A model generated the notes under the pieces. The model did not search any database. It was not told the DNA's origin and saw nothing but the letters and a program-made list of their open reading frames with translations. DNA of 64,000 bases from an uncultured virus (IMG/VR IMGVR_UViG_3300016476_001224) (Duplodnaviria; Heunggongvirae; Uroviricota; Caudoviricetes), in IMG/VR virus record IMGVR_UViG_3300016476_001224. One strand, written 5' to 3'. Position 1 is the first letter of the stretch. Each line of letters begins with the position of its first letter. Positions 25,080-41,509 of the stretch are shown piece by piece. A program made the position numbers and the translations under genes.

Positions 25080-25114
25080 AATTAATATATATATTAAAAT
25101 TATATTTTAGTAAA

Positions 25115-25457: not shown

Positions 25458-25613
25458 ATGTCATTTGCAAGAGGTTGGGGAAAAGATGGTGATAAACACA
25501 GAAGAGAAGATGATTTAGTTAATTATATAAAGAAGTTACATAAGTCAAATAAAAATATCTGGAGAAAGATTAAAATACTAAAAATACTTAATAGTGAAGA
25601 GTTCAACAAATAA
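25458..25613 (+). CDS. Small protein with C-terminal tag
   Basis: Likely start MSFARGWG after AAAC-N18-TATAAT; ends RKIKILKILNSEEFNK. Confidence 0.55.
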   Translation: MSFARGWGKDGDKHRREDDLVNYIKKLHKSNKNIWRKIKILKILNSEEFNK

Positions 25614-25791
25614 TCCTGGTATAGTTTGGTTACCATATACAATACAAGCAATGGCTGCAACTTGGTCAGGAACTCCTAATTTAAGTAAGTCAATAACCAG
25701 TAGATATTCAATAGTAACAATTGAAACAAAAAATGAAATAAGAAAAAGAAAGATTAAAAATATATTAAAAGAAGAAAACCACTCAATTTGA
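25594..25791 (+). CDS. Mini-protein: major-capsid C-terminal-like fragment plus C-terminal tag
   Basis: GTG start; PGIVWLPY-x20-SRYSIV, then RKRKIKNIL. Confidence 0.6.
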   Translation: MKSSTNNPGIVWLPYTIQAMAATWSGTPNLSKSITSRYSIVTIETKNEIRKRKIKNILKEENHSI

Positions 25792-25800
25792 GTGGTTTTT

Positions 25801-26283
25801 TTATAACATATGGTCTGATGCAGATAATATTATATCTCTAACTGTATTAATATTTTCCTCAATTTCTGAACCATCAACTATTTTATATACATAACTACTA
25901 TTTATTATTAAAAATCCATATTCTTCAATAATCTCAAAAAATTCAATTTTTTGGTCAATTTTTAGATGTTCTTTAAAATAGGATAGATATTTATTCAATT
26001 CATTGGTTTTTAAACTATCATATTCTTTTTTAAATCTTATGGAAGGCATTGTATCAAAAAAATGATTAGATATACATTTTGTTAAATCTTCATTACTAAG
26101 TGATTTATATTTTTTTGAAAAATCTAACTTATAAACATAACCATACATTGACCACCATTTTTCAGCATCCTTTTTAATATTTTCATCAGAATCTCTATCA
26201 ACACCTCTTGAGTTTGCAGATGATAGTTCAATTAAATATTTATCAGTATCTTCAAAACTCTCAAATACTTTTAGATATTTCAT
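25801..26283 (-). CDS. Hypothetical protein with leader
   Basis: MKYLKVFESFE. Confidence 0.7.
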   Translation of the reverse strand: MKYLKVFESFEDTDKYLIELSSANSRGVDRDSDENIKKDAEKWWSMYGYVYKLDFSKKYKSLSNEDLTKCISNHFFDTMPSIRFKKEYDSLKTNELNKYLSYFKEHLKIDQKIEFFEIIEEYGFLIINSSYVYKIVDGSEIEENINTVRDIILSASDHML

Positions 26284-26795
26284 TATTTAGTAAATTTCAA
26301 TTTGTAAAGTGTTCTATAAATTAATGCAACAACTTCATCAATAATATTTTGTAAATGTGTATCTTCTGCAGATATAGCTTTTCTACCATGTTTTACAAAT
26401 TCAGCTAAACCTTCAAAGTACTCAATTTTCTCTTTAGTTCTTGTATCATTTGTATCAATTGTTTCATAACCATCAACAATACCATATTGACCTTGGTAAG
26501 TCTCAATTAAATCATCAATTAATTCTAATACACCATCATAGTAATCATTTAAAGCAGTATGTGCAGCATGTGAACCCATTTCACCATTTACTTGTAAGTG
26601 ATAGATGTGTGCCATCTCTCTTGATTCAAATAATTTAGAGAAAAGAGCAACAGGTGTACCTTCTTGAGTTTCAGGTTGTGGTTCAGGTTGTTCAGTCTTA
26701 CCAGTTTCCTCTGGTTGTTTAATATTTTGAGGTAGATTAGCTAAAGCCATTTCCTCAGCTTCATATACTTTTCTAATAGTAGAAAACTTTTTCAT
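26283..26795 (-). CDS. Ferritin/Dps-like four-helix bundle protein (DUF5856-like)
   Basis: AHIYHLQ, HTALNDYYD, DDLIETYQGQYG, LQNIIDEV...TLYKLKF. Confidence 0.7.
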   Translation of the reverse strand: MKKFSTIRKVYEAEEMALANLPQNIKQPEETGKTEQPEPQPETQEGTPVALFSKLFESREMAHIYHLQVNGEMGSHAAHTALNDYYDGVLELIDDLIETYQGQYGIVDGYETIDTNDTRTKEKIEYFEGLAEFVKHGRKAISAEDTHLQNIIDEVVALIYRTLYKLKFTK

Positions 26796-26877
26796 ATAAT
26801 ATCTTTATTTTTTCTGTTATATATATTTTTTGAAATATAACTTTTAATATATATATAAAATATAAAAGTCATAAATT

Positions 26878-27144
26878 ATGAAATATATCAGAAAGTATGA
26901 AAAGTTTGTTGAGTCAACAATGACTGCACCTGCTAAACCAGTTGTTAAACCAGACACAGATACACCAACTAGAACAAAACCTTCAAGACCAGGTGTAGTA
27001 CCAGGAAAAAGACCAAGTGAGGAAGATGCACCTTTGGCAAAATTAAAACAACCAGGAAAAGATGCAACTTTAGAAGATGTTTTCAACAGATTAGTTAAAG
27101 TTTGTAATGAAGAAGGTATAGAACTTAAAAATTTAATTAAATAA
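26878..27144 (+). CDS. Pro-rich small protein with leader
   Basis: MKYIRKYEKFVES; TTAATATATA at 26844-26853. Confidence 0.7.
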   Translation: MKYIRKYEKFVESTMTAPAKPVVKPDTDTPTRTKPSRPGVVPGKRPSEEDAPLAKLKQPGKDATLEDVFNRLVKVCNEEGIELKNLIK

Positions 27145-27145
27145 T

Positions 27146-28741
27146 ATGAAGAGTTTCTCACAATTTTTAAAAGAAGAAATAGATTTAAGAGGTAATCAAG
27201 GTATTCCTGATGATTTCATGAGTAATGCAGATAGACAAGCAAGAACAAATCTTGGTGTAAATATTGATGACCCAAGACAATTAGGACAATATGGTTCTCA
27301 AATTGGTAGATTAATTGCACAATCTCAACAAATGATGACAAGAGGTTTAGATAGAGAACAATTAAAAGAAAGAAAAGAGAAGTTAGAAAAATTAGCTTAT
27401 GATATAGTTATATCAGAATATGCTGAGATTTTAGAAGCTTCTGAAAAACCAGTTGAATTAATTATAAAGTTTGTTGAAGAAGGTAGAGTTCAAAATGAAA
27501 TTCCTGAAATGGGAGATATACCATCATTTCCAAATCAAGAAGAAGTAAGAGACCCAGAATTAAGAAAGGCTGTTGATAAAAAGAAAATATTAAATGCCAT
27601 TAATCAAGGTGAAGCAAAGGCAACAAAATCTATTATTCAATACTCTGATTTAGTTGAACCAGGATTAAGAGAGATATTTGGTGAACAATGGCAACAAATA
27701 TTAAATATATGGTTAGAAACTACTGATGTTGCAAATAAATTAGACTGGATTTTCCCATTACAAATGAAATCTCAAATGATGAAAGATGTACCACAAGGAA
27801 TGGCTGGTGCTTGTCAAGTTAAATGGGAAAAAGATGAAGAAGATGAAGAAGATGAGGCTCAAGAAGCACAAGAAGAAAATAGTTATCAAGATGAAGATGG
27901 TACAATATTAACAGGTGACCAAGATGATTTTGATAAGATTACTATTAAAGCAGTTGGTATTGACTTTCCAATGTTAATACATGAAGCAGTTAAAGGTATT
28001 TGGTCATTAATTAAATCTGGTTCTATTAAAGAAGATGAAGAGTTAGCACAATTAATTGCTAAAAACACTTCTTCTTTTTCAGATGAATCACAAGATTTTA
28101 GATATGGAGTTCCAATGCAAGCTATGTTTAGAGATTTTATCAATGCATGTAAAGATGCAAATAAATATTCACAAATGCCATTAAGAATTTATGGTAAAAT
28201 TGCTTTAGATAAAGACAGAGATGGTGAGTTCTCAGATGAAGAGTTCTTACAATTAACAAAAGAGATATTTGGTTCATTTGATTTAGTAGATGAAGGAAGA
28301 TTAGAGTTTACACTTAATATTGAGAAATTCAATGCTTCTCCTGCTAAAAGAAAAATTGAAGCAATAATTGCTAAAATTGTTGAACTTGAAAAAGAATATG
28401 AAGATGAATTATCTAAATGGGAAATGGAACAACAATTTGGTGGTTCAGAAGAACCTTCATATTCAGAGGAAGATGGAGAAGGTCTTGACAATTACTTATC
28501 TGGTTTAGGAATTAATAAGGCTAAAGAGGAAGAAGAAGTTGAGGAAGAAGATGAAGATGAAGATGACATTGATACATTACTTGATAAATTATCAGCTGCT
28601 AAAACAGAACAAGAAAGAGAAGAAATTAAGAAAAAGTTAAATAAATTAACTGAATCATTATCAGAAGATGGTAAGAGAATATATGGTATAGAGATAGAAA
28701 GAATACTTGAATCAACAAAATACCACATAAAAAGAAAATAA
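27146..28741 (+). CDS. Large acidic hypothetical protein with leader
   Basis: MKSFSQFLKEE; FPMLIHEAVKG. Confidence 0.75.
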   Translation: MKSFSQFLKEEIDLRGNQGIPDDFMSNADRQARTNLGVNIDDPRQLGQYGSQIGRLIAQSQQMMTRGLDREQLKERKEKLEKLAYDIVISEYAEILEASEKPVELIIKFVEEGRVQNEIPEMGDIPSFPNQEEVRDPELRKAVDKKKILNAINQGEAKATKSIIQYSDLVEPGLREIFGEQWQQILNIWLETTDVANKLDWIFPLQMKSQMMKDVPQGMAGACQVKWEKDEEDEEDEAQEAQEENSYQDEDGTILTGDQDDFDKITIKAVGIDFPMLIHEAVKGIWSLIKSGSIKEDEELAQLIAKNTSSFSDESQDFRYGVPMQAMFRDFINACKDANKYSQMPLRIYGKIALDKDRDGEFSDEEFLQLTKEIFGSFDLVDEGRLEFTLNIEKFNASPAKRKIEAIIAKIVELEKEYEDELSKWEMEQQFGGSEEPSYSEEDGEGLDNYLSGLGINKAKEEEEVEEEDEDEDDIDTLLDKLSAAKTEQEREEIKKKLNKLTESLSEDGKRIYGIEIERILESTKYHIKRK

Positions 28742-28749
28742 TAGATTAA

Positions 28750-30927
28750 ATGAAATTAGCTAGATATAACCAATTTTTAGGATTAGATTCAATAAATGAG
28801 AATTTAGATAAAGCAAAAAAATATCTAAAGGATAGATACCTTGTACAAACAGCTGCCCAACAATTAGGATTCTTAAATGGTGAGTTAGGTGAGCAACTTA
28901 AACATGGTGAAAGAAAATCTGTTACTTTAAATGATTTTAATGAAGAACAAAGAAATCAAATAAAGTTAAAAATAAGGGAAATAAGTTTAACACCTGAACA
29001 ATTAAAAAAGGTTGAAGCGGATCCTGAATTAAAAGCAATAAGAGAGCTTAAAACAAAAGTTGTACAATCTAATGGTAATGAAAAAACTTTTCAATTAGAT
29101 AAAGACAACATAGGTTGGTTATCTTCATTTGTTTATTTTTACTACTTTGAAGGAGCAACACTTGAAGATTTATCATCACTATATGGTAAGATACTTAGAA
29201 ACAAAGATATTATACAAAATCTTACAGTAAATAAAGGTACTGCAGATAAACCTGTTTTAGCTAAGAAAGCATTTGACTTAAATTTCATTGACCCTAATAT
29301 TACAAATAATATGGAACAACTATCTGATGGTTTAGATAGATTGGAACAATATAGAAAAGTTAAGAGAATAGCAGATAGATTAAGTGTTAGTTCTGAGTTA
29401 AAAGCAAGTTATGCTACTATATCTGAGATGAATGCAGAAAAATTTGCTGAAATTGCAGAAGGATTTGATAAATTGGATGATAAAGATGTTGATGCATTTT
29501 TTGGTGGTATTACATTAGATACATTCCAATTTAAAATGGTTAATGGTCAAGTTACTGATATTCCAAATCCTTTATACAATACTTATCACTTTATGAGTAC
29601 ATTACCAAGATACCACAACATTGAGGAATTCTTGAAAGCCGCTAAACAATATTTAACTTCTATTGAGATGAGTAAAGATGAAGTTATTGAAGGTGAAAGT
29701 CCAGAAGATAGAAGAATAAGAATTGTTAGAAGAAGATACTTAGATTTTTGTAAAAAAGTTGATGAGTGTGTTGCCAAATTAGGTGCAGCAGGTGCTGAAT
29801 TTATTTACCCATTCAAACCAGAAGATAGATTTGATCCAGAAATTAACAAAGAAGGTATCTTAATTATTGAAGTTAGATCATACTCTGCAAATGTTATGTT
29901 AAATGGACATACTGCACACTGTATTAAAGATAGTTTAGGTAACTGGGATAGCTATGTTGGAAATCATGATAATAAACAATATTATATTTATGACTTTAAT
30001 GTACCTCTTACAGATGACTGGTCAACTATTGGTATTACAATTGAACCAAGACAAAGAGTAAGAGCTTGTCACAATAGACGTGATACATCTGTTAATACAG
30101 ATAGATTTAAAGATATATTAAAAGGTTATGAAAGAGACCATAATATTGATGTAAATCTTTGGTCATTACTTGAACCAATGACTAGTGAAGAAATTGAAAG
30201 AAAAGAAAGAGCTAAATTAGCTAATAGAAAAATTGTACAACCTGGATTATCATTAGAAGAAATAACTAAATTAGTTAAAGATGATAATGCAGACATTAAT
30301 AAAGATAATGGTAAATGTCTTGAGAATGCAGTAGATGAAGATGACATTGAAAAAGTAGAAGGTATTCTTAAATTAGGAGCACTTACTACATTAAAGAAAA
30401 AAGAAGAAGGACCTTTATTAAGAGCTAAAGGAATTGATATGATTAAATTATTAGTTTCTTATGGTGCTGAGATGAATGGGGAAATTTTCAAAAATGTTGT
30501 TAATGCAGTTGAACCATTACAATTCTGTTTATCTGCTGGGTTGGATCCAAACTTTGGACAATCTTTACCATTAAGAGCTTGTTATAAAGGAACTTGGAAA
30601 GACCAAAGAAATGAAGGAGATTCTTACTATGAACCATTCTTATTATTAATGGATTATATTAAGAAAACTAAATTATGGAAAGACTTATTAGATGGTAAAG
30701 GTAATCAAATCATTAAATGGGCTGCAGAGTATGGTAGAATTGAGTGTTTAGAATACTTTAAAGAAGCAGGTTTATTTGAAAAGATAAGTGATGGTGATTG
30801 GGATGACATCTTTACTTGGATTAAAATTAGTAGAAAAAGATTAAAAGATTCTAAAATAGAAACTATAAACTGGATAACTAAAAATTCAGGTAAAAGACCT
30901 AAATATGATTTATCAGCAATAAAATAA
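28750..30927 (+). CDS. Large protein with C-terminal ankyrin-like repeats
   Basis: CLENAV....IEKVEGILKLGA, MIKLLVSYGA, WAAEYGRIECLEYF. Confidence 0.65.
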   Translation: MKLARYNQFLGLDSINENLDKAKKYLKDRYLVQTAAQQLGFLNGELGEQLKHGERKSVTLNDFNEEQRNQIKLKIREISLTPEQLKKVEADPELKAIRELKTKVVQSNGNEKTFQLDKDNIGWLSSFVYFYYFEGATLEDLSSLYGKILRNKDIIQNLTVNKGTADKPVLAKKAFDLNFIDPNITNNMEQLSDGLDRLEQYRKVKRIADRLSVSSELKASYATISEMNAEKFAEIAEGFDKLDDKDVDAFFGGITLDTFQFKMVNGQVTDIPNPLYNTYHFMSTLPRYHNIEEFLKAAKQYLTSIEMSKDEVIEGESPEDRRIRIVRRRYLDFCKKVDECVAKLGAAGAEFIYPFKPEDRFDPEINKEGILIIEVRSYSANVMLNGHTAHCIKDSLGNWDSYVGNHDNKQYYIYDFNVPLTDDWSTIGITIEPRQRVRACHNRRDTSVNTDRFKDILKGYERDHNIDVNLWSLLEPMTSEEIERKERAKLANRKIVQPGLSLEEITKLVKDDNADINKDNGKCLENAVDEDDIEKVEGILKLGALTTLKKKEEGPLLRAKGIDMIKLLVSYGAEMNGEIFKNVVNAVEPLQFCLSAGLDPNFGQSLPLRACYKGTWKDQRNEGDSYYEPFLLLMDYIKKTKLWKDLLDGKGNQIIKWAAEYGRIECLEYFKEAGLFEKISDGDWDDIFTWIKISRKRLKDSKIETINWITKNSGKRPKYDLSAIK

Positions 30928-30941
30928 AAATAAAAATAACT

Positions 30942-31448
30942 ATGAAACTTAAAAAATTTAATGAAATGTTTGACCCAATGGGAAGTTGGGATCCAAAACA
31001 CCCTGATAATCAAATAGAAAAAGAAACACCAGAAGTAAAGGAAGTATCTAATGAAGATTTTAAAAATCCTGAATATGTTAAGTCTTTACCTGCTAATCCT
31101 GAAAAATTAATAAAGGCATTAGATGAAGGTCTTGATCCAACAACTATGTCACATATTTTACTAAGAGTTTGTTTTAGAGATAATTTAAAAGAGTCTTTTG
31201 AAATACTAATGTCTTTAATTAAAGAAAAAGACCTTAATAGTCTTCAAAAATTATTACTATGTAAATATTCTGCAGAATATGGTAGAATTGAGTTTTTAAA
31301 AGAATTTGAAAGTCTTGATTGGTTTAAAGAGTTTGATGAAACTGACTGGAAAAATTTACTTGAGTGGTTAGAATTATCAAGACAAATGAAAAATAGACCA
31401 GATGATAAAGAAAAAACAAAACAATTTCTATTAAGCTTAAAAAAATAA
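30942..31448 (+). CDS. Leader-bearing paralog of the C-terminal domain of the upstream gene
   Basis: MKLKKFNE; shared GLDP, LR.C, AEYGRIE.L and DW....W...SR. Confidence 0.7.
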   Translation: MKLKKFNEMFDPMGSWDPKHPDNQIEKETPEVKEVSNEDFKNPEYVKSLPANPEKLIKALDEGLDPTTMSHILLRVCFRDNLKESFEILMSLIKEKDLNSLQKLLLCKYSAEYGRIEFLKEFESLDWFKEFDETDWKNLLEWLELSRQMKNRPDDKEKTKQFLLSLKK

Positions 31449-31460
31449 TAAAAACCCATC

Positions 31461-32192
31461 TTATGATGGGTTTTGTTTTTCTAAATATTTGTAAATTAAA
31501 AATGCATCATTTACATCTTCATATGGTTTAGGAATTTTAGCAATTCCCATAATGTCTGTTTTGGATAACTTACAATGTTTTGTCCAGTAATCATCCCAAA
31601 CTTGATTTTCAACAATAGCTAAAAACATTTCTGTTTTGGTAAATTTTCCACCAGAAATTCCTATGTTATTTCTATACTCTTCTTTAATTGTAATTTTCTT
31701 TTTACCACTTTCTTTTATAATTGGTGGGTAAGTTAATTTACAAGATTCAAGCTTCAAGGTTGAAGGAGAAAGTACAATAATGTCTTCTGATATTAAATCA
31801 AATAGTTTCTTTCTTAAAATGGTTGAAAATGTGACCAAATCAATTATGTCACCTGCTGTTGATGAAAATGAATAACCTTCAATACCAATTTTAGTTGGTT
31901 TATTAGGGTCTATATTTTCTTTAATGTCACTGATTATAATATCACTGATTTTATCATAATCTTTTAACTTTACTAATTCACCTTCTGAGTAATCTTTGAA
32001 TTTTCTATATTCAATGAATTTATAAGTTATAAATTGTTCTGCTAAACCAAACCATTTAGTTATTCCTTTTTTACCAAATGCACTTGATTCTCTACAATAA
32101 TTATACATTTTAAAGGTATCACCTGATGATACTACTAATGCTGTAGATATTAAACTGGGGTCTATTGTTACTATATTATATTTCATAAACAT
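31461..32192 (-). CDS. RuvC-like Holliday junction resolvase (RNase H fold)
   Basis: TIDPSLISTA, IEGYSF, EDVNDAF. Confidence 0.7.
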   Translation of the reverse strand: MFMKYNIVTIDPSLISTALVVSSGDTFKMYNYCRESSAFGKKGITKWFGLAEQFITYKFIEYRKFKDYSEGELVKLKDYDKISDIIISDIKENIDPNKPTKIGIEGYSFSSTAGDIIDLVTFSTILRKKLFDLISEDIIVLSPSTLKLESCKLTYPPIIKESGKKKITIKEEYRNNIGISGGKFTKTEMFLAIVENQVWDDYWTKHCKLSKTDIMGIAKIPKPYEDVNDAFLIYKYLEKQNPS

Positions 32193-32213
32193 ATATAGTA
32201 AATGAAGTAGTTC

Positions 32214-32891
32214 CTATTTTAATTTTTCTTTTAACCAATCTACCTTACTTTCATGTACAAGTAAACAAGGACTTGAAGTGAAAAATTCACAAGCACCCTC
32301 TCCTTTATAGTTAGGTGCTAATCCACTACCCAAATAAACCTTGGAATTTGGTAATGTATCAAGTTCTGAAAATGGAACTTTAAAGTTTTCAGTATAATTA
32401 GTTTTTATAAAATTATCTTTACTAATTCTTTTTCCTGAAACTTGGTCAGAATTTTTAATAGAACCACTTCTATCTCTTAATCCCCAAAGATCACATACTG
32501 GACAAAATACAATTTCACTATTATCAAATGGTATAACTAAGTAAATATCACTATTTACTAAAAATTTACAAATCTCTTTATTAGTACCACCAATTAAAGA
32601 GTTTTTTCTAACAACTGGATATTCTTCTGTATCATGTTCAATCTCATTAAAGAAATCTTTAAATGCAAGAGGATCTGCATTTCTTGGTGCAGGTGTAAAT
32701 AATTCTAAATCATACTTTTTATATTTTGATCTCCAAAGTAAATCACTATCAAATGAAAAGTTTTTACAATTACTTTTTAATATCTCTAAAAACTCTTCTT
32801 CATTAAGTTGTTTAGTTCTATTTAATTCTTCTAAATTAGAATCAGGTCTTGCCAAGCTTTCTAAAAATGCATCAAATTTTTTAATTTCCAT
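32214..32891 (-). CDS. Hypothetical protein with leader
   Basis: MEIKKFDAFLES; TTAATATATA on minus strand at 32896-32905. Confidence 0.7.
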   Translation of the reverse strand: MEIKKFDAFLESLARPDSNLEELNRTKQLNEEEFLEILKSNCKNFSFDSDLLWRSKYKKYDLELFTPAPRNADPLAFKDFFNEIEHDTEEYPVVRKNSLIGGTNKEICKFLVNSDIYLVIPFDNSEIVFCPVCDLWGLRDRSGSIKNSDQVSGKRISKDNFIKTNYTENFKVPFSELDTLPNSKVYLGSGLAPNYKGEGACEFFTSSPCLLVHESKVDWLKEKLK

Positions 32892-32939
32892 AGTGTATAT
32901 ATTAAATATTTTTAGTACTTTTGTAGAAACAAATAGTAT

Positions 32940-33398
32940 ATGTCAGGACACAAATTGAATAATTCAGATGCGCTAAAGTTTATGTTTGCAGGTAATTCAA
33001 CATTTACTGTTGTTAATACCAAGACAGAAAACAGATTTACTTTCAAAGTGAAAAAGTCTAAAGATAAAGATAGTAATCTTTTCTTTGTTAGTGTTTTAAC
33101 TGGTCCTGATAACTATACTTATATTGGAACTGTGGTTGAAGGTATTTACAAACATGGTAAGAAATCTGTTATTTCAACAGATGCACAATCAGTTAGAGTA
33201 TTTGATTATGTTTTAAACAAGCTTAAATTAGGTAAACTTCAAGAATTTGTTGAGGTTTGGCATGAAGGTACTTGTGGTAAATGTGGTAGAGTATTGACAG
33301 TTCCATCAAGTATTGAAAATGGTTTAGGACCAGAGTGTATTAAGTCTCTTTCAAAACAAGAAAAAAGAGACAAATTTTTATCTTTAATTTTATCATAA
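32940..33398 (+). CDS. DUF6011-like zinc-ribbon protein with C-terminal tag
   Basis: WHEGTCGKCGRVLTVPSSIENGLGPEC; ends RDKFLSLILS; TACTTTTG at 32916-32923. Confidence 0.7.
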   Translation: MSGHKLNNSDALKFMFAGNSTFTVVNTKTENRFTFKVKKSKDKDSNLFFVSVLTGPDNYTYIGTVVEGIYKHGKKSVISTDAQSVRVFDYVLNKLKLGKLQEFVEVWHEGTCGKCGRVLTVPSSIENGLGPECIKSLSKQEKRDKFLSLILS

Positions 33399-33916
33399 TG
33401 GATTTAGTATCAGTAATAGTTTCAGGATTAGCTCTAGTGGCTATAGTTTTTGTTTCAGTTAGTTTATTTAGATTATCAAGGAAAAGAAAGAATATAGGTT
33501 GGGATGTTAAACAAGGTATTAGATGTTATGCCTGTAAAACAGACTTATTAGAAGATTTATCTGAAACAGATAGATATGAGAAACTAATGGATGTTTATGA
33601 GAAAGCATCAAAAGACCCAAAAAATGAAGATTTTCATTTATGTGTTTCTTGTAATAGGAATGATAAATTAGAAGGAATAACAAGTCATAAATTCTTTAAT
33701 GTACATAGACTTAATAAATTAAAAAAATTATTATATTCAAGAAAATCTGATAAAATTCAAATGATAATGATAATACTAATGATTGTATTTCAATTTATTG
33801 ATGGATTAATCAAACACTATTTCAAGATACACACAATGATTGGTTCATTATATACTATTTTTTATTGGTTTATATGGTATTATAAAATGAGATTATCATT
33901 TGGTGAAAAAAAGTAA
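33398..33916 (+). CDS. Membrane protein with two CxxC pairs
   Basis: N-terminal and C-terminal hydrophobic helices; CYAC and CVSC; internal RNDKLEGI. Confidence 0.7.
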   Translation: MDLVSVIVSGLALVAIVFVSVSLFRLSRKRKNIGWDVKQGIRCYACKTDLLEDLSETDRYEKLMDVYEKASKDPKNEDFHLCVSCNRNDKLEGITSHKFFNVHRLNKLKKLLYSRKSDKIQMIMIILMIVFQFIDGLIKHYFKIHTMIGSLYTIFYWFIWYYKMRLSFGEKK

Positions 33917-33948
33917 AACCTCTAATTTCTTAGAGGTTTTTCTTATTA

Positions 33949-34000
33949 GGGTCGACAACTGGTACTGTCAACATCCACCACCATATTTTACAAAATATGG
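33949..34000 (-). other. Candidate structured RNA element in the 3' region of the Hc1-like gene
   Basis: Locally GC-rich; hairpins CCATATTTT/AAAATATGG and GTTGACA-N8-TGTCGAC ahead of the terminator at 33915-33940. Confidence 0.35.
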
Positions 34001-34016
34001 AAAAACAGAATTGTTA

Positions 34017-34187
34017 TTATGCTTTTGCCTCAGCAACAGAAGCAGCTCTATAAGGAGTTACTAATTTTTTGATTTCACCTAAAGCTTTACGAGCATCAGC
34101 ATCTGATTTTTTAGTTGTTTTAGCATGGTTAGCTTCAAAAGTAGCCCATAAAGCAGCTAATTGTTCAAAAATTTCTTGTTTGTTCAT
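34017..34187 (-). CDS. Histone H1-like (Hc1-family-like) small nucleoid protein, 56 aa, absent from ORF track
   Basis: MNKQEIFEQLAALWATFEANHAKTTKKSDADARKALGEIKKLVTPYRAASVAEAKA*; ARKAL.EIKKL...YR..S pattern. Confidence 0.7.
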   Translation of the reverse strand: MNKQEIFEQLAALWATFEANHAKTTKKSDADARKALGEIKKLVTPYRAASVAEAKA

Positions 34188-34240
34188 AATTTTATTTTTA
34201 TTTTTTGTTTTAAACCTACTTATCTAAGAGGTTTTAATTT

Positions 34241-35464
34241 TTATCCGAAAATATCATCTGCATCTGCTGCATCTGTAAATCCATTTGTATCATCATCTTC
34301 TTCAATGATTGCATTAAATTCTTTTTCAACTTCATCAATTTCATCAATAGACTTAAATCTAAAGTAATCATTTACAATTGGTGCCATTTTCTCCAACACT
34401 TCTTGAGTGAATACTTCTTGAGTGAATAATTGTTTAGTTGTTACTGATTTATTTAAGTGGTCAACATACCATCTTGTTCCACCTGGAATGAATTTCATTT
34501 CACCTGTTGATTTATCAACTTCCATTTTACCTTTAGCAATACCAATTTGATTAAAGTATTCTGGTCTACAGAAAGCATCTAATCCTGTGTAAGGATTCAT
34601 ACCATGTGCAAATGATATATCAAATCTAATCTTTTTAGGTTTTGCTAATCTATTTTTCTGTGTTTTAAATAGAACTGAAATACCTGATTGTCCTAAGTCC
34701 ATATCATCTTCCTCACCAGTTTTCAATTTTGATTTACTTAAAAATCCTAATACTGATGCAGAGTAAACAAGACCCATACCACCTTTAGAAATCTCTTTAG
34801 GGAATAAATCTTGAGATAAGTATGTGTGATTACAACAAACCATTGGAATATCTAAGAAACCTAAGTCAGAACTAATACTTCTGAAAAGTGCATTTAATCC
34901 TTTTGCTCTTGTCATATCTTGTTTCATAGCACCTTTTAATAAATCTTCTTTCTCTTTATTAGAAGACATCATACCAATTGAATCAAGTACAATAACAATT
35001 TTAGGGATTTCAAATCCATCCATTTTAGCTTCTTTTAATTCATCCAATAATTGTGTTAAAAAGATATTAATATCTTCAACTTTATTAGATCTAACTAATC
35101 TAAATTTATCTGGTGCATTATCAATACCAAATTTTGTAATACCCTCTAAATCAATTGAGTTCTCGGTATCAATATAAATAATTGACGAACCTGATTTCTG
35201 TGCAGATTTACAAATTGAGTAAGCAATAAATGATTTACCTGCTCCTGATTCTCCTAATAAACCAAAGATACGTCCACCTAAGATACCACCACCAACTAAC
35301 TTAGCTGATAATGCAGCATCCAATAAATAACAACCTGTTGATATAAATTGTTTTTCTTTAACTTCTTTCTCAATAATAATTGGCACTGATTTTGCTATGT
35401 TGTCCAAAATAGAACCAACTTTACTGAACTCAAACTTTTTTCCTTCTTTAACTTGTTTAGCCAT
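34241..35464 (-). CDS. uvsX: RecA/UvsX recombinase
   Basis: ISTG, GESGAGKS, YIDTE, IVLDSIG, DMTRAK, NHTY, GGMGLVYSAS, KNR. Confidence 0.92.
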   Translation of the reverse strand: MAKQVKEGKKFEFSKVGSILDNIAKSVPIIIEKEVKEKQFISTGCYLLDAALSAKLVGGGILGGRIFGLLGESGAGKSFIAYSICKSAQKSGSSIIYIDTENSIDLEGITKFGIDNAPDKFRLVRSNKVEDINIFLTQLLDELKEAKMDGFEIPKIVIVLDSIGMMSSNKEKEDLLKGAMKQDMTRAKGLNALFRSISSDLGFLDIPMVCCNHTYLSQDLFPKEISKGGMGLVYSASVLGFLSKSKLKTGEEDDMDLGQSGISVLFKTQKNRLAKPKKIRFDISFAHGMNPYTGLDAFCRPEYFNQIGIAKGKMEVDKSTGEMKFIPGGTRWYVDHLNKSVTTKQLFTQEVFTQEVLEKMAPIVNDYFRFKSIDEIDEVEKEFNAIIEEDDDTNGFTDAADADDIFG

Positions 35465-35595
35465 TTTAATTTCTAATATTTTTATAAAGTATATATAAAG
35501 TTTTTTCTCTCCCCTTTCAACATTTTTGAAAAAAGTTTTGAAGGGGGGCTTAACTTATTGATATATAATAAGAAATAAACATAAATATATAGGAA

Positions 35596-36318
35596 ATGAC
35601 AAGAACTGAATTTTTAGAAAAAGCTCATAATCAACATGGTTACAAATACAAGTACATAGATTTATCTGATAAAATAATATTATCTGATAAAATAATTATT
35701 GAGTATAATGGTATTCAATATGAACAAAGAGTTTCTAAACATTTAATGGGGAAATGTCCTGAGAAAACTACACCTACAAAGACTACAGAACAATTTATAA
35801 AAGAATCTATAGAGGTTTGGGGTAATAAATATGATTATAGTTTAACTGAATATAAAGGTGCATTAGTTGATGTTAAAATTATTTATGATGGTATAGTTTA
35901 TTTACAAAGACCTACTTCTCATTTAAAAGGTATGGCACCTGAGTTTAGAAGAACTGAGGAATCAATAATTAATGATGAGATGAGAAAAAGTGATTTATTT
36001 GGTGAAACAGAAATACATAACTTTTTGAGAAAATACAAAATACAATTTAAAGAAAGATATAGATTAGGTGAGGTTACTTTTGATTTTTATTTACCAAGTC
36101 TTAGAGTTTGTATAGAGTTTGATGGTAGACAACATTTTGAACCTATTGAGAAGTTTGGTGGTGTTACAACATATGAACGTATTAAATCAAATGATAAGAC
36201 TAAAAATGAATATTGTGAAGAACATTATATTGAATTAATAAGAATAAAGTATGATAAGATTGATGATATTTATAGAACACTATGGGATAGTTTAGCACAT
36301 AAAATAAAAAAGACCTAA
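35596..36318 (+). CDS. Putative homing endonuclease (Vsr/PD-(D/E)XK-like)
   Basis: KYDYSLTEY module; FDFYLPSLRVCIEFDGRQHF; related to 24174..25079. Confidence 0.7.
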   Translation: MTRTEFLEKAHNQHGYKYKYIDLSDKIILSDKIIIEYNGIQYEQRVSKHLMGKCPEKTTPTKTTEQFIKESIEVWGNKYDYSLTEYKGALVDVKIIYDGIVYLQRPTSHLKGMAPEFRRTEESIINDEMRKSDLFGETEIHNFLRKYKIQFKERYRLGEVTFDFYLPSLRVCIEFDGRQHFEPIEKFGGVTTYERIKSNDKTKNEYCEEHYIELIRIKYDKIDDIYRTLWDSLAHKIKKT

Positions 36319-36329
36319 ATGGTCTTTTT

Positions 36330-36650
36330 TTATTTTCTGAATTTATTTGGATATAATGTTCTTAATTCATGTCCAGGTGGAATATCAGATACTTTAATAC
36401 CCATTACTTTTTGTTCAGGTGTTGTATCTTTTCCATCCATTAAGAAATTATTATTACTTGCCCAAACCTCAGCAGTTCTATTAAATAATTGACCTACTGA
36501 AAAACAAAATCTTGTTCCTGTTGGGTTATCAATATCAGTTATTCTACCATCAGGTGATTTAGTAACTTTTATTACAATTCTTGGATTTCTTTTATTAGTG
36601 AAAGTAACAACTTTCTCTCCAAACTCTTCAAATATTTTTATGTGTTTCAT
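36330..36650 (-). CDS. Hypothetical protein with leader
   Basis: MKHIKIFEEF. Confidence 0.7.
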   Translation of the reverse strand: MKHIKIFEEFGEKVVTFTNKRNPRIVIKVTKSPDGRITDIDNPTGTRFCFSVGQLFNRTAEVWASNNNFLMDGKDTTPEQKVMGIKVSDIPPGHELRTLYPNKFRK

Positions 36651-37102
36651 TTTAATTTACTTTTTAATTTACTTTTTATATAAGTTTTAACTTTATCTAA
36701 AACATTAATTGGTCTAAAATAAATATAAATCCTTTCTAAACTTATACGTCTCTTTTGAATATTTTCAAATGAATCAAGTGTTTCTTTATTTTCATAACCA
36801 TTATAATTAAGAAAATATTTAGCTATAAAATCTAATTTAACATTATTACTTTCTTCTAAATATTCTTTGGCAACTTCTAATACTTCAAGAACTTCATCAT
36901 CAAGTAAAAAACTTCTATGATCATCTTTACTAACTTTGATTTCAATTCCTTTATCTACATCTTTAAAGTTTTTACCAATTGTTTTTAAATATCCAATATT
37001 GACTTCAATACTAAATCCCATATCTTGTAATTCTACAAAACAAGACTTAATTGAGTCTATGTCATACTTTGAACTTTCATCAAATCTAACTAAATACTTC
37101 AT
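36647..37102 (-). CDS. Leader-bearing protein of the D.GF paralog family
   Basis: Likely start MKYLVRFDES at 37102, just after TTAATATATA at 37107-37116; IKSCFVELQDMGFSI. Confidence 0.7.
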   Translation of the reverse strand: MKYLVRFDESSKYDIDSIKSCFVELQDMGFSIEVNIGYLKTIGKNFKDVDKGIEIKVSKDDHRSFLLDDEVLEVLEVAKEYLEESNNVKLDFIAKYFLNYNGYENKETLDSFENIQKRRISLERIYIYFRPINVLDKVKTYIKSKLKSKLK

Positions 37103-37141
37103 TTCATATATATTAAATTTTGATAGTATAAAATAATTTAC

Positions 37142-37149
37142 TATCTTTG
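37142..37149 (+). promoter_or_regulatory. Bacteroidota-type -7 element TAnnTTTG (early promoter, representative)
   Basis: Also at 32916, 42848, 44582, 49751 and 2216(-), each about 15-20 nt before a start codon. Confidence 0.7.
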
Positions 37150-37168
37150 TACAAATAAAAATAATAAT

Positions 37169-37759
37169 ATGAACATTTGGTTTACATCTGATACACACTA
37201 TCATCATGCTGGAATTTCTGGTCCTGAATTGTCTAAATGGAAGTCTGGTTATAGAACTTTCAAAACAGTTGCAGAAATGAACCTATGTTTGATAGAAACT
37301 ATCAACAAATATGTAAAAGAAGATGATATACTTTATCATCTTGGTGACTTTTCTTTTGGTTCACCTCAAAAAATGTATGAGTTCAGAAAATCATTAGTAT
37401 GTAAAACTATACACTTGATAAAAGGAAACCATGATGAAATTTTTGATGAATTTCATGCTGAGAAAAGAGCAAGATTATCATTTGATCCATTTGAACTATT
37501 TGCAAGTGTTAGAGATACTTATACTGGTTACATTGGTAAAAACAAATTCCACTTATCTCACTATGCACATAGAGTTTGGCCAAGTTCACACAAAGGTGTT
37601 ATTCACCTTTATGGACACTCTCATGGTAGTATTTCAGATTATGGTAAATCAATGGATGTTGGTATAGATGCACACAAAGAGTTTAGACCTTTCCATATCA
37701 ATGAAATATTACAGATTATGGAAAAAAGAGAAATTGTTAAAGTTGATCACCATGTCTGA
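37169..37759 (+). CDS. Calcineurin-like metallophosphoesterase
   Basis: FTSDTH, HLGDF, KGNHD, SHY, YGHSH, DVGID; TATCTTTG at 37142-37149. Confidence 0.9.
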   Translation: MNIWFTSDTHYHHAGISGPELSKWKSGYRTFKTVAEMNLCLIETINKYVKEDDILYHLGDFSFGSPQKMYEFRKSLVCKTIHLIKGNHDEIFDEFHAEKRARLSFDPFELFASVRDTYTGYIGKNKFHLSHYAHRVWPSSHKGVIHLYGHSHGSISDYGKSMDVGIDAHKEFRPFHINEILQIMEKREIVKVDHHV

Positions 37760-37937
37760 TTTGAAATTAGAAATATCTAAGTTAAAACTCTTAATAAATG
37801 CTAAATATGGTGCATATGGTAATAAAAAAGATACTATGTATTATGAACTATTAAGAAAGAGGAAAAAGATTACTGGTATGCTTTTGAAGATAGAGAATAG
37901 AAAGAGAAAAATAGAAAAACTACTATGCAAAATATAG
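37752..37937 (+). CDS. Mini-protein: PolB motif-B-like fragment plus C-terminal tag
   Basis: MSDLKLEISKLKLLINAKYGAYGNKKDTMYYEL...RKRKIEKLL; start overlaps the upstream stop. Confidence 0.6.
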   Translation: MSDLKLEISKLKLLINAKYGAYGNKKDTMYYELLRKRKKITGMLLKIENRKRKIEKLLCKI

Positions 37938-38248
37938 AAGATAGATTTGAAATGGGTACCTGTGTTGTTTGTATAAAAGAATATGAAACACTAAAAGTTA
38001 GAAGTCACTACAACATAAAAGGTTGTGGTGACTTGACTTGGAATGCTGCCACTGATAAAGAAGGTTATGGATTTTGTGTTGAAGATGAATTTGCATCCAA
38101 TAAAAAAGATTGGTGGAACCTTGCCTATTCAGAAAGAGTTAAATGGTATTACTTTACAGAGGAAGAAATGAATGAATATTTTATTACACAAGAAGAGGAC
38201 TTTATAATATATTCAAGAGATCAAAAATTAAAAGAATTAGGTATATGA
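37925..38248 (+). CDS. Hypothetical protein with C-terminal tag
   Basis: Ends RDQKLKELGI. Confidence 0.75.
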   Translation: MQNIEDRFEMGTCVVCIKEYETLKVRSHYNIKGCGDLTWNAATDKEGYGFCVEDEFASNKKDWWNLAYSERVKWYYFTEEEMNEYFITQEEDFIIYSRDQKLKELGI

Positions 38249-38688
38249 ATACAAATGAATTAAGAGAATTACTTAATGAAGTTTTCTTTGAAGATAAATA
38301 TGAGATTACTGAAACTGATTACACAAAATATGATGAAGATTTAGTAAGATTTAATGTAAAAGTTTATTCAAAGAAAATGAATAAACATATGACAATGATT
38401 GTAATACATAATTATATAATAGGTACAACAATATGTAAAGATCTTTGGATAATGGATTGGTCTCTACCTAATCAAAATTACTATATGAGAATACCTGGAA
38501 CAAGTTATAAAAGAAATACTAAAGATGTTGGTGATCCAAAATACTTTTTAATGTTATCAAAAGATAAGATGAATGATATTTTACTCATAAATGAATTAAA
38601 TAATAATTTAATTAGTGATATGAGAGAAATGGATAAAAACCCTATGACTATGACAAGAGACTATAAATTAAAAAACTTAGGAATATGA
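38245..38688 (+). CDS. Hypothetical protein with C-terminal tag
   Basis: Ends RDYKLKNLGI. Confidence 0.75.
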   Translation: MNTNELRELLNEVFFEDKYEITETDYTKYDEDLVRFNVKVYSKKMNKHMTMIVIHNYIIGTTICKDLWIMDWSLPNQNYYMRIPGTSYKRNTKDVGDPKYFLMLSKDKMNDILLINELNNNLISDMREMDKNPMTMTRDYKLKNLGI

Positions 38689-39302
38689 TAGATATATTTG
38701 GAAATGAACCTATTAGGTTAGATAGATTAGTATGTCATTCTGGTGGTGCAGAAGGTTCTGACACATATTGGGAAACCATAGGTGCTAATTATGGTGTGAA
38801 AACTAAAGCATATTCATATAAGACAAAATATCACACATCTGAAAACAAAGTAGAAATTAGTGATACTGATTATGAAGAAGGTGTAAAAGAAATAACTAAA
38901 GCAAACAGAACATTAAATAGATATGGTATTCATAAGTTTATGAACTTACTTGCAAGAAATTGGACTCAAATAAAATACTCTGATGAAGTATTTGCAATAG
39001 GAACTATAGTAGAACCAGGTAAAAAAGGTTCTAAAGGGTTTTATAATAAATCAGAGTTTCAAGTAGTAGATGGTGGAACTGGTTATGCAGTTCAAATGGC
39101 AATAAATAATGGTAGGTTTGTTTATGTATTTGACCAGGATAAAGACAAATGGTTTAGATGGTCACATACATCATTAAGGTTTATTGAAGTCACAAAACCT
39201 CTTAAAATAAGTTATGAGAACTTTGCAGGAATTGGCACAAGAGAGATTAAACCTAATGGAATAAAAGCAATAGAAGAAGTATATAAAATAACATTTAATT
39301 AA
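38685..39302 (+). CDS. SLOG-superfamily-like nucleotide-binding protein
   Basis: CHSGGAEGSD, LARN, GGTGYAV, FAGIGTR. Confidence 0.6.
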   Translation: MIDIFGNEPIRLDRLVCHSGGAEGSDTYWETIGANYGVKTKAYSYKTKYHTSENKVEISDTDYEEGVKEITKANRTLNRYGIHKFMNLLARNWTQIKYSDEVFAIGTIVEPGKKGSKGFYNKSEFQVVDGGTGYAVQMAINNGRFVYVFDQDKDKWFRWSHTSLRFIEVTKPLKISYENFAGIGTREIKPNGIKAIEEVYKITFN

Positions 39303-39306
39303 AAAC

Positions 39307-39702
39307 ATGGAAAAAGATACAATTATAGTTGAAATGACACCTTTCTTATTTGAGGATGGTAAAACTTATTATTTTGATATTAGAAAAGGTTATAGTAATA
39401 CATATCACTATTTATTTGTTTATAAAAAAGTTGAAATTACAACAGAAAGAAAAACTTGGTTTGGTCTTGGTAAAACTGAAACAAAAGTAACAACTGAATA
39501 TCAGTGTATAAATAAGAATAATGGTGCTTTAGTAAATATAAACTTAAATACAAGAGAAGTTAAAAGTGAAATAAAAAATGTCATTGTTGCCAATCAAGCA
39601 GTTACTAAGATAAAAGATTGGGATGGATTTGTTGGTGATATACCAACAGATGCAAAAATGGCTTTATTAAGGGATTCAAAGTTAAATGATTTAGGTATAT
39701 AA
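39307..39702 (+). CDS. Hypothetical protein with C-terminal tag
   Basis: Ends RDSKLNDLGI. Confidence 0.75.
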   Translation: MEKDTIIVEMTPFLFEDGKTYYFDIRKGYSNTYHYLFVYKKVEITTERKTWFGLGKTETKVTTEYQCINKNNGALVNINLNTREVKSEIKNVIVANQAVTKIKDWDGFVGDIPTDAKMALLRDSKLNDLGI

Positions 39703-40130
39703 TGGAAAGATCAGCAGGAATAATTATAATATTAAATAACAAGAAATTACTTTTAAGTCATCCAACTAATTCAAGATGGAATAATACTTACTCATTTCCT
39801 AAAGGTGGAATTGAAGAAGGTGAAAACCAAATTGAAGCAGCCATAAGAGAACTTAAAGAAGAAACTTCTATTGAAGTAACAGAAGATATGATAATTGATA
39901 AAGAGCCAATTATTGTTCTTTACAATGACAGAAAAGGTAAAATATACAAAGAAGTATATTTATTCAAAGTTTATATAAATGATGTAACTGAAATTGGTTT
40001 AACCAGTGAAACTTTACCAAAAGAAATGTTACAAATTGAAGAATTAGATTGGTGTGGGTTTTTAGATAAAGAAGAAGCTAAAAGTAAAATATTCTACAGA
40101 GTAGAACACTTATTAAACTTAATTGACTAA
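39702..40130 (+). CDS. NUDIX hydrolase
   Basis: Nudix box GGIEEGENQIEAAIRELKEETSI. Confidence 0.9.
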   Translation: MERSAGIIIILNNKKLLLSHPTNSRWNNTYSFPKGGIEEGENQIEAAIRELKEETSIEVTEDMIIDKEPIIVLYNDRKGKIYKEVYLFKVYINDVTEIGLTSETLPKEMLQIEELDWCGFLDKEEAKSKIFYRVEHLLNLID

Positions 40131-40158
40131 GTAAGATATAATAAAGAAAAACTTTATT

Positions 40159-40542
40159 ATGACTACTATTGACTTTGATTATAACTACCAACAACCAAGA
40201 ATTGAATTAAATTTAGATAATCCAATTTTTGTATTTTATATATGTGTTAATGGATTCTCAAGACAAAGAGCAGAGGAATATATGTATCAAATTAGAAGTC
40301 AATTTGATATATATAGTAATATAACAATGTGGATTGTAGCTACTGATGAACCAACAAGAATTGAATGTGTTTATGATGGTAAAGGTAGAACTAAGGATTC
40401 TGAAATTGCTGGATTGATTGAACAGATAAATGAAAGAATTACAGTGTTAGGACAATCCCATACATTTGAAGATTTCAAAATAAATATAAGAGATTGGAGA
40501 ATTGATAAAATAGTTAAACATCTTAATGAAGAAGACAAGTAA
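40159..40542 (+). CDS. Mini-protein: portal clip-domain-like fragment plus C-terminal tag
   Basis: VFYICVNGFSRQRAEEYMYQI...MWIVATDEPTRIECV; RDWRIDKIV near the C-terminus. Confidence 0.6.
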   Translation: MTTIDFDYNYQQPRIELNLDNPIFVFYICVNGFSRQRAEEYMYQIRSQFDIYSNITMWIVATDEPTRIECVYDGKGRTKDSEIAGLIEQINERITVLGQSHTFEDFKINIRDWRIDKIVKHLNEEDK

Positions 40543-41283: not shown

Positions 41284-41290
41284 AAAAGAT

Positions 41291-41509
41291 ATGGAAACAA
41301 AAGGAAAATTTAAAGTTGTATTTGAAGGATTTCAAAATGAACAACAAGCAAGAGAGTTTGCACAATGGTATTCAGGTTCAGGAGAACAGGATTCTGGAAT
41401 TTGGTTAGAAGAACATTCTGATGTTACCGGTGCATATGTTGAGAAAATTAACAAAGTAAATGAAAACAATGAAATCATTGTACCTTTAAAGATTTACAAA
41501 AAGTTATGA
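41291..41509 (+). CDS. Hypothetical protein
   Basis: Likely start METKGKF; WYSGSGEQ. Confidence 0.65.
   Translation: METKGKFKVVFEGFQNEQQAREFAQWYSGSGEQDSGIWLEEHSDVTGAYVEKINKVNENNEIIVPLKIYKKL

Follow-up and report, generated by a model that had tools for sequence, protein, structure and literature searches.

Genes and features at the locus

The DNA analysed here, called the window below, is a stretch of 64,000 nucleotides from an uncultured virus of the class Caudoviricetes (IMG/VR record IMGVR_UViG_3300016476_001224). Three of its small open reading frames (ORFs), which we term ORF1, ORF2 and ORF3, encode proteins sharing a short C-terminal motif, the tag, that is also found at the end of other proteins encoded nearby. 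An earlier note had described them as pieces of the capsid, polymerase and portal proteins, each fused to this common tail. The three ORFs are indeed present and each of them ends in the motif, as RKRKIKNIL in ORF1, RKRKIEKLL in ORF2 and RDWRIDKIV in ORF3. The features needed to follow the analysis are listed below (MCP, major capsid protein; PolB, family B DNA polymerase).

25083..25091, + strand: late-type promoter-like sequence TAATATATA, 32 nucleotides upstream of the gene 25115..25435
25458..25613, + strand: ORF A, 51 amino acids, conserved ATG; a second tiny tailed ORF, ending RKIKILKIL
25594..25791, + strand: ORF1, 65 amino acids, GTG start; putative mimic of the MCP C-terminal segment (G-h-V-W-h-P-Y ... 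S-R-Y) followed by RKRKIKNIL
25777..25802, + strand: intrinsic-terminator-like hairpin, 8-bp stem followed by a T run, overlapping the ORF1 stop codon
37119..37149, + strand: TTTG ... TATCTTTG, a site of -33/-7 type and presumably the early promoter for operon 37169..42179 with ORF2 and ORF3
37752..37937, + strand: ORF2, 61 amino acids; likeness to the N-terminus of the PolB C-subunit and to the motif B helix (KLLINAKYGAYG), then RKRKIEKLL
40159..40542, + strand: ORF3, 127 amino acids; small alpha/beta family with RDWRIDKIV inside an invariant block
2305..3834, + strand: N-subunit (exonuclease domain and motif A) of a split PolB

The G+C content of the window is 23-31%, and that of the parent megaphage about 27%. 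T4-like replication and recombination genes are present (RNR, a DnaB-like helicase, UvsX and a partial PolB). The UvsX protein shares 74-76% identity with its counterparts in LR756502.1 (642 kb) and LR745206.1 (635 kb), two uncultured huge phages, and 55%, 47% and 33% with those of the more distant LR756504.1, LR756501.1 and Lak phages, respectively. The window comes from a megaphage whose relatives include LR756502.1 and LR745206.1, hereafter the two relatives; the origins of these two are given as a freshwater lake and a subsurface sample in the available part of PMC9723777. LR756502.1 was taken as the reference proteome, with 987 ORFs of at least 40 amino acids called by a simple greedy caller and processed in 33 pieces; 79 ORFs were called in the window, the caller dropping ORF2. 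Homologue searches covered a 41-kb locus of LR745206.1 and 396 kb of LR756504.1, and the tag counts for LR756501.1 and Lak-A2 come from 200-kb samples.

The operon with ORF A and ORF1 begins at the gene 25115..25435. ORF A overlaps the start of ORF1 by 20 nucleotides; stop codons lie upstream of its ATG in the three relatives examined, and the GTG start of ORF1 is kept in four IMG/VR relatives. In both relatives the portal genes are preceded, at about 20-30 nucleotides, by TAATATATA and the MCP genes by a close variant, [AT]ATATATAG; many window genes also have TAATATATA in front of them. We regard it as a candidate late promoter of this phage group. Its distance from the gene starts (sites at 25083, 18056, 62489 and others) is about 13-33 nucleotides, and the genes concerned encode portal, tail-fibre-like and N-motif proteins, the last beginning with MK-x-[LI]-K-x-F-[EN]. 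The site in front of the ORF2 and ORF3 operon follows a TTTG...TAnnTTTG consensus, which we take to be of the Bacteroidota type. The three ORFs had been placed behind early or middle promoters; this presumably holds for ORF2 and ORF3, in the operon from 37169 with its early-type site, but not for ORF1, which is predicted to be co-transcribed from the late-type TAATATATA within a cluster of N-terminal MK..F.. genes. The last ORF1 codons lie within the terminator stem, equivalent hairpins are found with the homologues in both relatives, and two other tiny ORFs also end in terminator stems.

The C-terminal tag is a portable protein module

The tag was searched for as R..[KR][ILF]..[ILF][LVIGF], ending within the last 23 residues. 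This expression matched 8 of the 79 ORFs in the window (shuffled mean 0.1, maximum 2) and 119 of 987 in LR756502.1, about 12% of its proteins (shuffled mean 1.6, maximum 6). The motif occurs at 6.75 per 1000 positions in tails vs 0.11 per 1000 in protein interiors, and the tail enrichment is about 60-fold in the window and 50-fold in LR756502.1. Its frequency is far above that expected by chance. The first count of about 12 motif genes in the window was also close: the expression finds eight, ORF2 makes nine, and about four looser variants can be added. Besides ORF1 to ORF3 and ORF A, these genes include the following.

37925..38248, + strand: tagged protein, 107 amino acids, ends RDQKLKELGI
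38245..38688, + strand: tagged protein, 147 amino acids, ends RDYKLKNLGI
39307..39702, + strand: tagged protein, 131 amino acids, ends RDSKLNDLGI
41745..42179, + strand: tagged protein, 144 amino acids, PHROG 2164, ends RYNKISQII
720..1352, - strand: tagged protein, 210 amino acids, ends RDLKLSQILE
40526..40876, + strand: looser variant RRNKIIDELLG, 19 residues before the C-terminus, read by eye
41506..41748, + strand: looser variant, ends YRSRIIDNILE, read by eye
32940..33398 and 39702..40130: looser variants, read by eye

The consensus derived from the aligned tails is h-R-[D>N>E]-x-K-[L/I]-[N/K/D]-x-[I/L]-[L/G]-(I)-stop. The 9-mer is followed by zero or one residue in 71 of 127 tags, and many others carry 2-14. 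The arginine codons of the tag are AGA, AGG and CGT, in genome proportions; its leucine positions use TTA, CTA, TTG and CTT, and leucine and isoleucine interchange. The ORF1 homologues show synonymous differences at the R and I codons of the tail, one orthologous family of 29 sequences alternates between the endings LGI and IL-x, and the tail is also found on ORFs with nothing but a terminator downstream. Since the codons at fixed positions follow genome usage, the tag has been selected as protein and not as DNA. A DNA-level signal, such as a promoter or a coupling site, is ruled out by the synonymous codon variety and the L/I swaps. Altogether, the tag is a portable protein-level module, namely a C-terminal amphipathic helix of 10-16 residues. 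Our literature searches, which had supplements outside their scope, found no published description of such a tag or of capsid-fragment genes, and the word 'motif' does not occur in the available part of PMC9723777.

The carriers in LR756502.1 are highly diverse. Once the tag was removed, the 119 proteins fell into 117 BLAST clusters (E<1e-3), and a single paralogous family as the source of the tag was rejected on this count. The carriers are thus more than 100 mutually unrelated proteins, mostly small (median 109 amino acids vs 144 overall), encoded in operons of closely spaced genes (median gap -1). A Pfam match at E<=0.001 was obtained for just seven of them (riboflavin kinase, BtpA, DUF6011, DUF2158, a zinc ribbon, DNA_pol_B and one other), with one core-protein fragment among the seven, and for the remaining tagged ORFs of the window neither Pfam nor PHROG gave a likeness to a capsid, polymerase or portal family. 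The idea that the other tagged ORFs would be further baits is not supported by these figures. In a crude count by nearest upstream motif, 125 tagged genes gave 19 late, 19 early and 59 with neither, vs 58 of 78 N-motif genes with TAATATATA nearest and hence late.

A strict DNA pattern for the ...LGI-stop form occurs at 17 sites in LR756502.1 (reversed-pattern control, 0) and in 89 IMG/VR stretches, mostly contigs of 80-480 kb; it gave no site in LR756504.1, LR756501.1, Lak-A2 or LR756500.1. LR756504.1 has a variant tail, hRKxKIxxLL, on 43 of 644 ORFs vs 0.9 expected. The tag is missing from the samples of LR756501.1 (3 of 286 ORFs vs 0.35 expected) and of Lak-A2 (0 of 227-347 ORFs). It is therefore confined to part of the huge-phage tree. 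The tails of LR756501.1 (735 kb) are enriched for another motif, D-x-Y-G-E...W, with Y-G-E in 11 of 265 tails; this motif is absent from the window and from LR756502.1.

One typical carrier, 39307..39702, has 29 aligned homologues, all named 'hypothetical'. Its structural model (pLDDT 77) comprises a beta domain (residues 6-77), a helix (82-100), a linker and the tag helix (114-128), in which the tag looks like a flexible appendage. The linker has pLDDT below 50 and contains an invariant WDGFVG (D in 25 of 29 sequences, otherwise N). Because this segment is invariant where the model fails to place it, the linker may contact another molecule. In fold, the beta domain is weakly like the N-domain of AcrIF24 (Z 6.1), PliI, which inhibits lysozyme (Z 5.2), and Dip of phiKZ (Z 5.0); these were the best VIA-align matches, and each falls below the noise level of the tool. 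For 37925..38245, the ESM Atlas gave nothing beyond viral 'hypothetical protein' clusters.

ORF1 and other capsid fragments

All three ORFs are real coding genes under constraint. Their dN/dS ratios (nonsynonymous to synonymous substitution rates, Nei-Gojobori method, close IMG/VR relatives) range from 0.18 to 0.45, which is not the pattern of decaying genes or pseudogenes with a ratio near 1. In a 3x4 hhalign matrix, each ORF family matched its proposed parent best, with an E value two to three orders of magnitude below those for the other three core proteins; off-target matches had a probability of at most 0.5% and E of at least 0.12.

ORF1 has four related loci in IMG/VR (83-87% identity) and homologues in LR756502.1 and in the LR745206.1 locus. 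Its dN/dS is 0.18-0.45, with a synonymous excess at p 8e-4, and its MCP-like residues are kept across three genomes at 40-43% overall identity. The MCP of LR756502.1 is a Gp23-type protein of 571 amino acids (PF07068, E 4.5e-28). Aligned with two MCPs by hhalign, the ORF1 family (six members) matched positions 508-548 over 40 columns with a probability of 88.5% and E 2.7e-6, while off-target core proteins reached at most 0.2%. The LR756502.1 homologue is 46% identical to residues 513-546 of its own MCP (BLAST E 5e-7, about 1,070 proteins searched), and that of LR745206.1 matched Pfam Gp23 at E 2.2e-4 (21.2 bits, under the 24.4-bit cut-off). ORF1 of the window gave E 3e-4 against the MCP in a pairwise comparison; it had no Pfam match at E<=1 and does not belong to Gp23 (PF07068) as a whole protein. 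The proposed likeness to the C-terminus of the gp23 capsid protein is thus borne out through the family, and by these alignments ORF1 is a diverged copy of the MCP C-terminal segment.

Other parts of the MCP have been copied in the same manner. Positions 164-194 of the MCP profile recur in tailed mini-ORFs of LR756502.1 (70 amino acids, E 1.3e-3) and LR745206.1 (62 amino acids, E 5e-4), and MCP 421-451 recurs in a tailed ORF of 59 amino acids (E 0.002 in the proteome search, 1e-5 pairwise). Among the 193 ORFs of LR756502.1 with at most 80 amino acids, core-protein fragments were found in 4 of 37 loosely tailed ORFs vs 0 of 156 untailed ones (Fisher p 0.0012). The four are three MCP-fragment mini-ORFs and one PolB motif-A mini-ORF, all with a basic tail. 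Untailed fragments of other genes also occur in LR756502.1: a PCRF piece of 51 amino acids, a GIY-YIG piece and an Imp-YgjV piece. The start of ORF A, S-F-A-R-G-W-G-K-D, shares five of nine residues with T-I-A-G-G-W-V-K-D, which precedes motif A in the PolB N-subunit of the window (E 2.6, non-significant).

ORF2 and the split polymerase

The PolB C-subunit, with motifs B and C, is encoded outside the window. In the relatives, the genes of the two subunits lie about 100-135 kb apart, and the break falls, in our reading, between two finger helices. ORF2 bridges a phosphoesterase gene and 37925..38248 by overlaps. Its start at 37752 was rightly chosen, as the longer frame from 37668 has a stop in relatives. 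Three related loci are found in IMG/VR (83% identity), with dN/dS 0.24 and a synonymous excess at p 0.03, and no homologue in LR756502.1, the LR745206.1 locus or the part of LR756504.1 searched.

Family B polymerases have K-x3-N-[SA]-x-Y-G as their motif B consensus. ORF2, which aligns to the first 48 residues of the C-subunit, carries K-L-L-I-N-A-K-Y-G-A-Y-G, and its K-L-L-I-N-A-K-Y-G matches the motif B pattern, the polC genes of the relatives having KLVLNGSYG. Against polC, BLAST gave E 0.004 (nine proteins searched); ORF2 also matched positions 398-437 of PHROG 1252, 'DNA polymerase' (E 0.0019), and the ORF2 family matched the C-subunit by hhalign over 17 columns (probability 18.4%, E 0.0013). 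There was no Pfam match at E<=1, PF00136 included, and phmmer against the PDB returned designed repeat proteins and no polymerase. A predicted complex of ORF2 with the PolB N-subunit of the window, run without controls, scored 0.00. The claim of a gp43 motif B stands for the sequence pattern, but the likeness by profile is weak. On this sequence evidence, ORF2 is a probable copy of the part of the split PolB that holds the second finger helix and motif B.

A mini-ORF of LR756502.1, with 49 amino acids and a tail, matches PolB motif A (Pfam E 1.3e-4). It has 84 PDB matches at E<=10, and all 60 matches listed are DNA polymerases, for example 1d5a residues 398-425 (E 0.0015).

ORF3 is a separate case

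ORF3 has five close loci in IMG/VR (84-89% identity), twelve more at 49-57% and a homologue in LR756502.1; none was found in the LR745206.1 locus. Its dN/dS is 0.19-0.32 (synonymous excess, p 3e-6). A segment of ORF3 is 43% identical over 37 residues to portal positions 264-300 (G-[FL]-[SP]-R-Q-R-A-E-E; E 0.002, nine proteins), and hhalign aligned the family with the PF07230-type portal over 24 columns at a probability of 23.5-29%. The structural model (pLDDT 74.5) shows a strand-helix-hairpin-helix-helix arrangement. It retrieved nothing at E<=0.001 from the PDB with Foldseek, and in the wide VIA-align search the best match (Z 7.2) covered a helical hairpin alone, with no portal among the matches listed. 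A PDB profile search with the family found neither a relative nor a portal. The identification with the gp20 portal clip thus keeps a likeness of 24-37 residues, but this is weak and the fold searches list no portal.

Nor is ORF3 a fragment joined to a tag, as had been claimed. Its family consists of complete proteins of 107-143 amino acids, in which the tail region is the invariant core, S-F-[ED]-D-F-K-I-N-I-R-D-W-R. ORF3 is a complete small tagged protein with a short portal-like strand-helix.

Other genes in the window and its relatives

Four homing-endonuclease-like genes and a set of N-motif genes were also recorded.

24174..25079 (- strand), 35596..36318, 12646..13695 and 45295..46332: homing-endonuclease-like genes, two of treble-clef or DUF559 type and two GIY-YIG
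1422..1763, 6156..6668 (- strand), 13732..13965, 25801..26283 (- strand), 36330..36650 (- strand) and 42172..42822 (- strand): examples of N-motif proteins

Two of the homing-endonuclease-like genes lie close to the loci studied. A start of the form MK-x-[LI]-K-x-F-[EN]-x-F is found in 17 of 79 window ORFs with one expression, and in 78 of 1066 ORFs of the window and LR756502.1 with another. Its sequence presumably resembles the T4 targeting sequence. By analogy with the internal proteins of T4, as presented in the accessible part of PMC3012670, the motif looks like a capsid targeting sequence.

The window also contains an Hc1 histone-like gene (34017..34187, - strand, E 1.5e-5). LR756502.1 has a gene for ribosomal protein S21 (piece positions 3871-4065, E 7e-12) and, amid small ORFs, the 51-amino-acid ORF with the PCRF domain of release factors (piece positions 7774-7926, E 5e-7), which may be a broken or split release-factor gene. 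Both relatives encode a ClpC-like unfoldase of 701-707 amino acids, which combines two AAA modules with a UVR motif and a D2-small domain and lacks Clp_N, and each has two or three ClpP; one ClpP-like gene adjoins a gene for a sigma-70-type factor. Neither relative has peptidase S41, PDZ_2 or the ClpX zinc finger. Clp genes are also present in LR756504.1, which is tagged, and in Lak-A2, whose sample has no tag, and LR756501.1 has an unfoldase without ClpP. Since the presence of Clp does not track the tag, this phyletic pattern neither supports nor excludes Clp as its partner.

Possible functions of the tag and of the tiny ORFs

We tentatively favour a reading in two parts, which is quite possibly right: the tag would be a docking or targeting helix for one common partner, and the tiny ORFs would be micro-protein mimics of core proteins. 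As a short linear signal, the tag would bring its carriers to this partner, with R1, K4, L5 and L8 predicted on one face of the helix and Gly-Ile acting as a cap. The tiny ORFs form a subclass of 40-75 amino acids whose tail is more basic (R-[KR]-x-K-I-x-[KN]-I-[LF]), and their bodies are diverged, conserved copies of the most conserved core-protein segments. They could be competitive mimics of one interface of the parent protein, tuning or blocking capsid or polymerase assembly in their own phage or in co-infecting relatives, while the tail would provide partner binding or localisation. Protein fragments can inhibit the interactions of their parent, according to the accessible part of PMC11831152. 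The modular picture of the earlier note is retained here for the tiny ORFs, which do join a core piece to the shared helix and recur in relatives, but not for ORF3.

Several observations weigh against this reading. Blind searches of the 64-kb window were non-significant, with E 3 from the MCP to ORF1, 2.5 from polC to ORF2 and 0.043 from the portal to ORF3, and the likenesses of ORF2 and ORF3 rest on profile matches of 17 and 24 columns. The lack of an ORF2 homologue in LR756502.1 or in 396 kb of LR756504.1 means that ORF2 is young or dispensable. The copied segments appear, in our reading of the sequences, to be buried core elements of the MCP and PolB, so that engagement of the parent by a free peptide is not obvious. 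ORF1 is made alongside the phage's own MCP, so a pure poison would harm the phage itself. Finally, no partner for the tag was found and its binding remains predicted, and a partner common to the basic tail and the RDxKLxxLGI tail is assumed.

We consider it rather unlikely that the tag is a degron, through which the ClpC-ClpP of the phage or a protease of the host would clear many early proteins at a set time, a bait role being absent. The extreme C-terminal position and the non-polar end of the tag, with its 0-1 residue after the 9-mer in 71 of 127 cases, would suit such a signal, as would the packed operons (median gap -1) without enrichment for the late motif and the Clp genes in all three tag-bearing genomes, LR756502.1, LR745206.1 and LR756504.1. 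However, the 2-14 extra residues on many tags indicate that a free C-terminus is not required, Lak-A2 has Clp without the tag, and a tag that is the invariant core of the ORF3 family would be odd for a simple degron.

To the same degree improbable is a role as a capsid or virion targeting peptide, comparable to the C-terminal helix of a scaffold, the cargo peptide of encapsulins or the targeting sequence of T4, the carriers being packaged and ejected. The internal proteins of T4 are diverse and share just a short targeting sequence (PMC3012670, available part). The capsid is of Gp23 type, some tags end in LGI, and ORF1 and ORF A belong to a late-type operon among MK..F.. genes. But ORF2 and ORF3 are in an early-type operon, and the crude count given above speaks against this role (19 late, 19 early and 59 with none, vs 58 of 78 late for the N-motif genes).

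The proposal that the mini-proteins are baits for immune sensors or for proteins of rival phages, their complexes being routed by the tag to a hub or protease, seems to us decidedly doubtful. The core-protein piece and shared tail form a real architecture, ORF2 and ORF3 are in an early-type operon, and the relatives encode a ClpC-like unfoldase without N-domain and 2-3 ClpP, so that a phage-owned protease hub exists. Against this, ORF1 lies behind a late-type promoter, the other tagged proteins are not core-protein fragments, the copied segments are by our reading core strands and helices rather than surface features, and the Lak-A2 sample combines Clp genes with 0 tagged ORFs.

It is very unlikely that the mini-ORFs are recombination scars or coupling bridges, with the tail a by-product of A-rich gene ends. 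One could invoke the overlaps of ORF2 with genes at both ends, the tiny ORFs that end in terminator stems, the restriction of ORF2 to one lineage and the homing endonuclease genes close by (24174..25079 and 35596..36318). Yet the amino-acid sequences are under purifying selection, the MCP-like residues persist at 40-43% identity over three genomes, fixed tail positions show synonymous codon variety, and the same tail is found on four independent fragments in LR756502.1.

In a further scheme, the tag would lead its carriers to a hub owned by the phage, and the system would parallel, in bacterial viruses, the poxvirus ankyrin/F-box arrangement. Each of more than 100 unrelated early proteins would capture its own target, from the host or from a rival phage, and the shared helix would bring this target to a single machine, for which the ClpC-ClpP without N-domain is a candidate; the capsid, polymerase and portal mimics would then be adaptors to sensors of these proteins or to the assembly lines of competitors. 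We give this scheme very little weight. Least probable of all is an amphipathic membrane-targeting helix, like that of MinD or FtsA, making the carriers peripheral membrane proteins: by its consensus the motif is a short helix at the C-terminus, one face of which is hydrophobic (L5, L8 and L9) and flanked by R1 and K4, but it has just 3-4 hydrophobic residues, and position 2 (Asp/Asn) and position 9 (Gly) are strongly conserved, as would be expected of a specific contact with a protein.

If the favoured reading of a docking helix and micro-protein mimics holds, one helix on about 12% of the proteins of a 640-kb phage would point to a single partner for much of its unknown gene content, and knowing this partner would offer a way into the roles of over 100 orphan genes in each genome. 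The tiny capsid and polymerase genes, if they are mimics, would be natural cases of fragments that inhibit or regulate the assembly and replication of a virus, with possible relevance to phage competition, to defence evasion or to the control of very large capsids.

Comparison with known systems

A first parallel can be drawn with the internal proteins of T4, whose targeting sequence is removed by the prohead protease. The likeness lies in a short conserved terminal peptide as the sole shared part (PMC3012670, in the part available). The T4 sequence is N-terminal, whereas the tag is C-terminal and is not enriched behind late-type promoters (19 of 125 vs 58 of 78 for the N-motif genes), so that the tag does not qualify as a capsid targeting sequence of this kind. 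The separate N-terminal MK..F.. motif of the phage is a better match to the T4 case.

The ssrA tag, the end of MuA and the XB tail of SspB are likewise short signals at the C-termini of unrelated proteins, read by one AAA+ machine. Unlike these signals, the tag is predicted to form a structured helix in which R, D/N and K are fixed; further residues may follow it, and its occurrence does not track that of Clp. Clamp-binding motifs, such as the PIP box and the gp45-binding ends of T4 gp43, gp55 and gp33, also have an extreme C-terminal h-x-x-h-h and serve one hub. The carriers of the tag differ in being mostly unannotated small proteins, and the tag is absent from the C-terminal ends of the PolB N-subunit, UvsX, helicase and ligase of the window and, where these ends were read, of the PolB C-subunits of the relatives.

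The microProtein concept comes from plants and animals. Like the tiny ORFs, a microProtein is small and holds one interaction segment of a larger protein, with which the microProtein competes (PMC11831152, accessible part). The tiny ORFs differ in that the fragment is joined to a genome-wide tail and in that their activity is predicted. Our literature searches found no report of microProteins of a phage capsid or polymerase.

Finally, shells with the HK97 fold are bound through short C-terminal elements, namely the cargo-loading peptides of encapsulins and the capsid-binding helices at the C-termini of scaffold proteins (P22 gp8, 80alpha gp46, SaPI1 CpmB), by which unrelated proteins or mimics are docked. 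The sequences are unlike that of the tag beyond an occasional L-G-I, and most tag carriers are apparently not late genes. CpmB is itself a small protein that copies just the binding end of a larger one.

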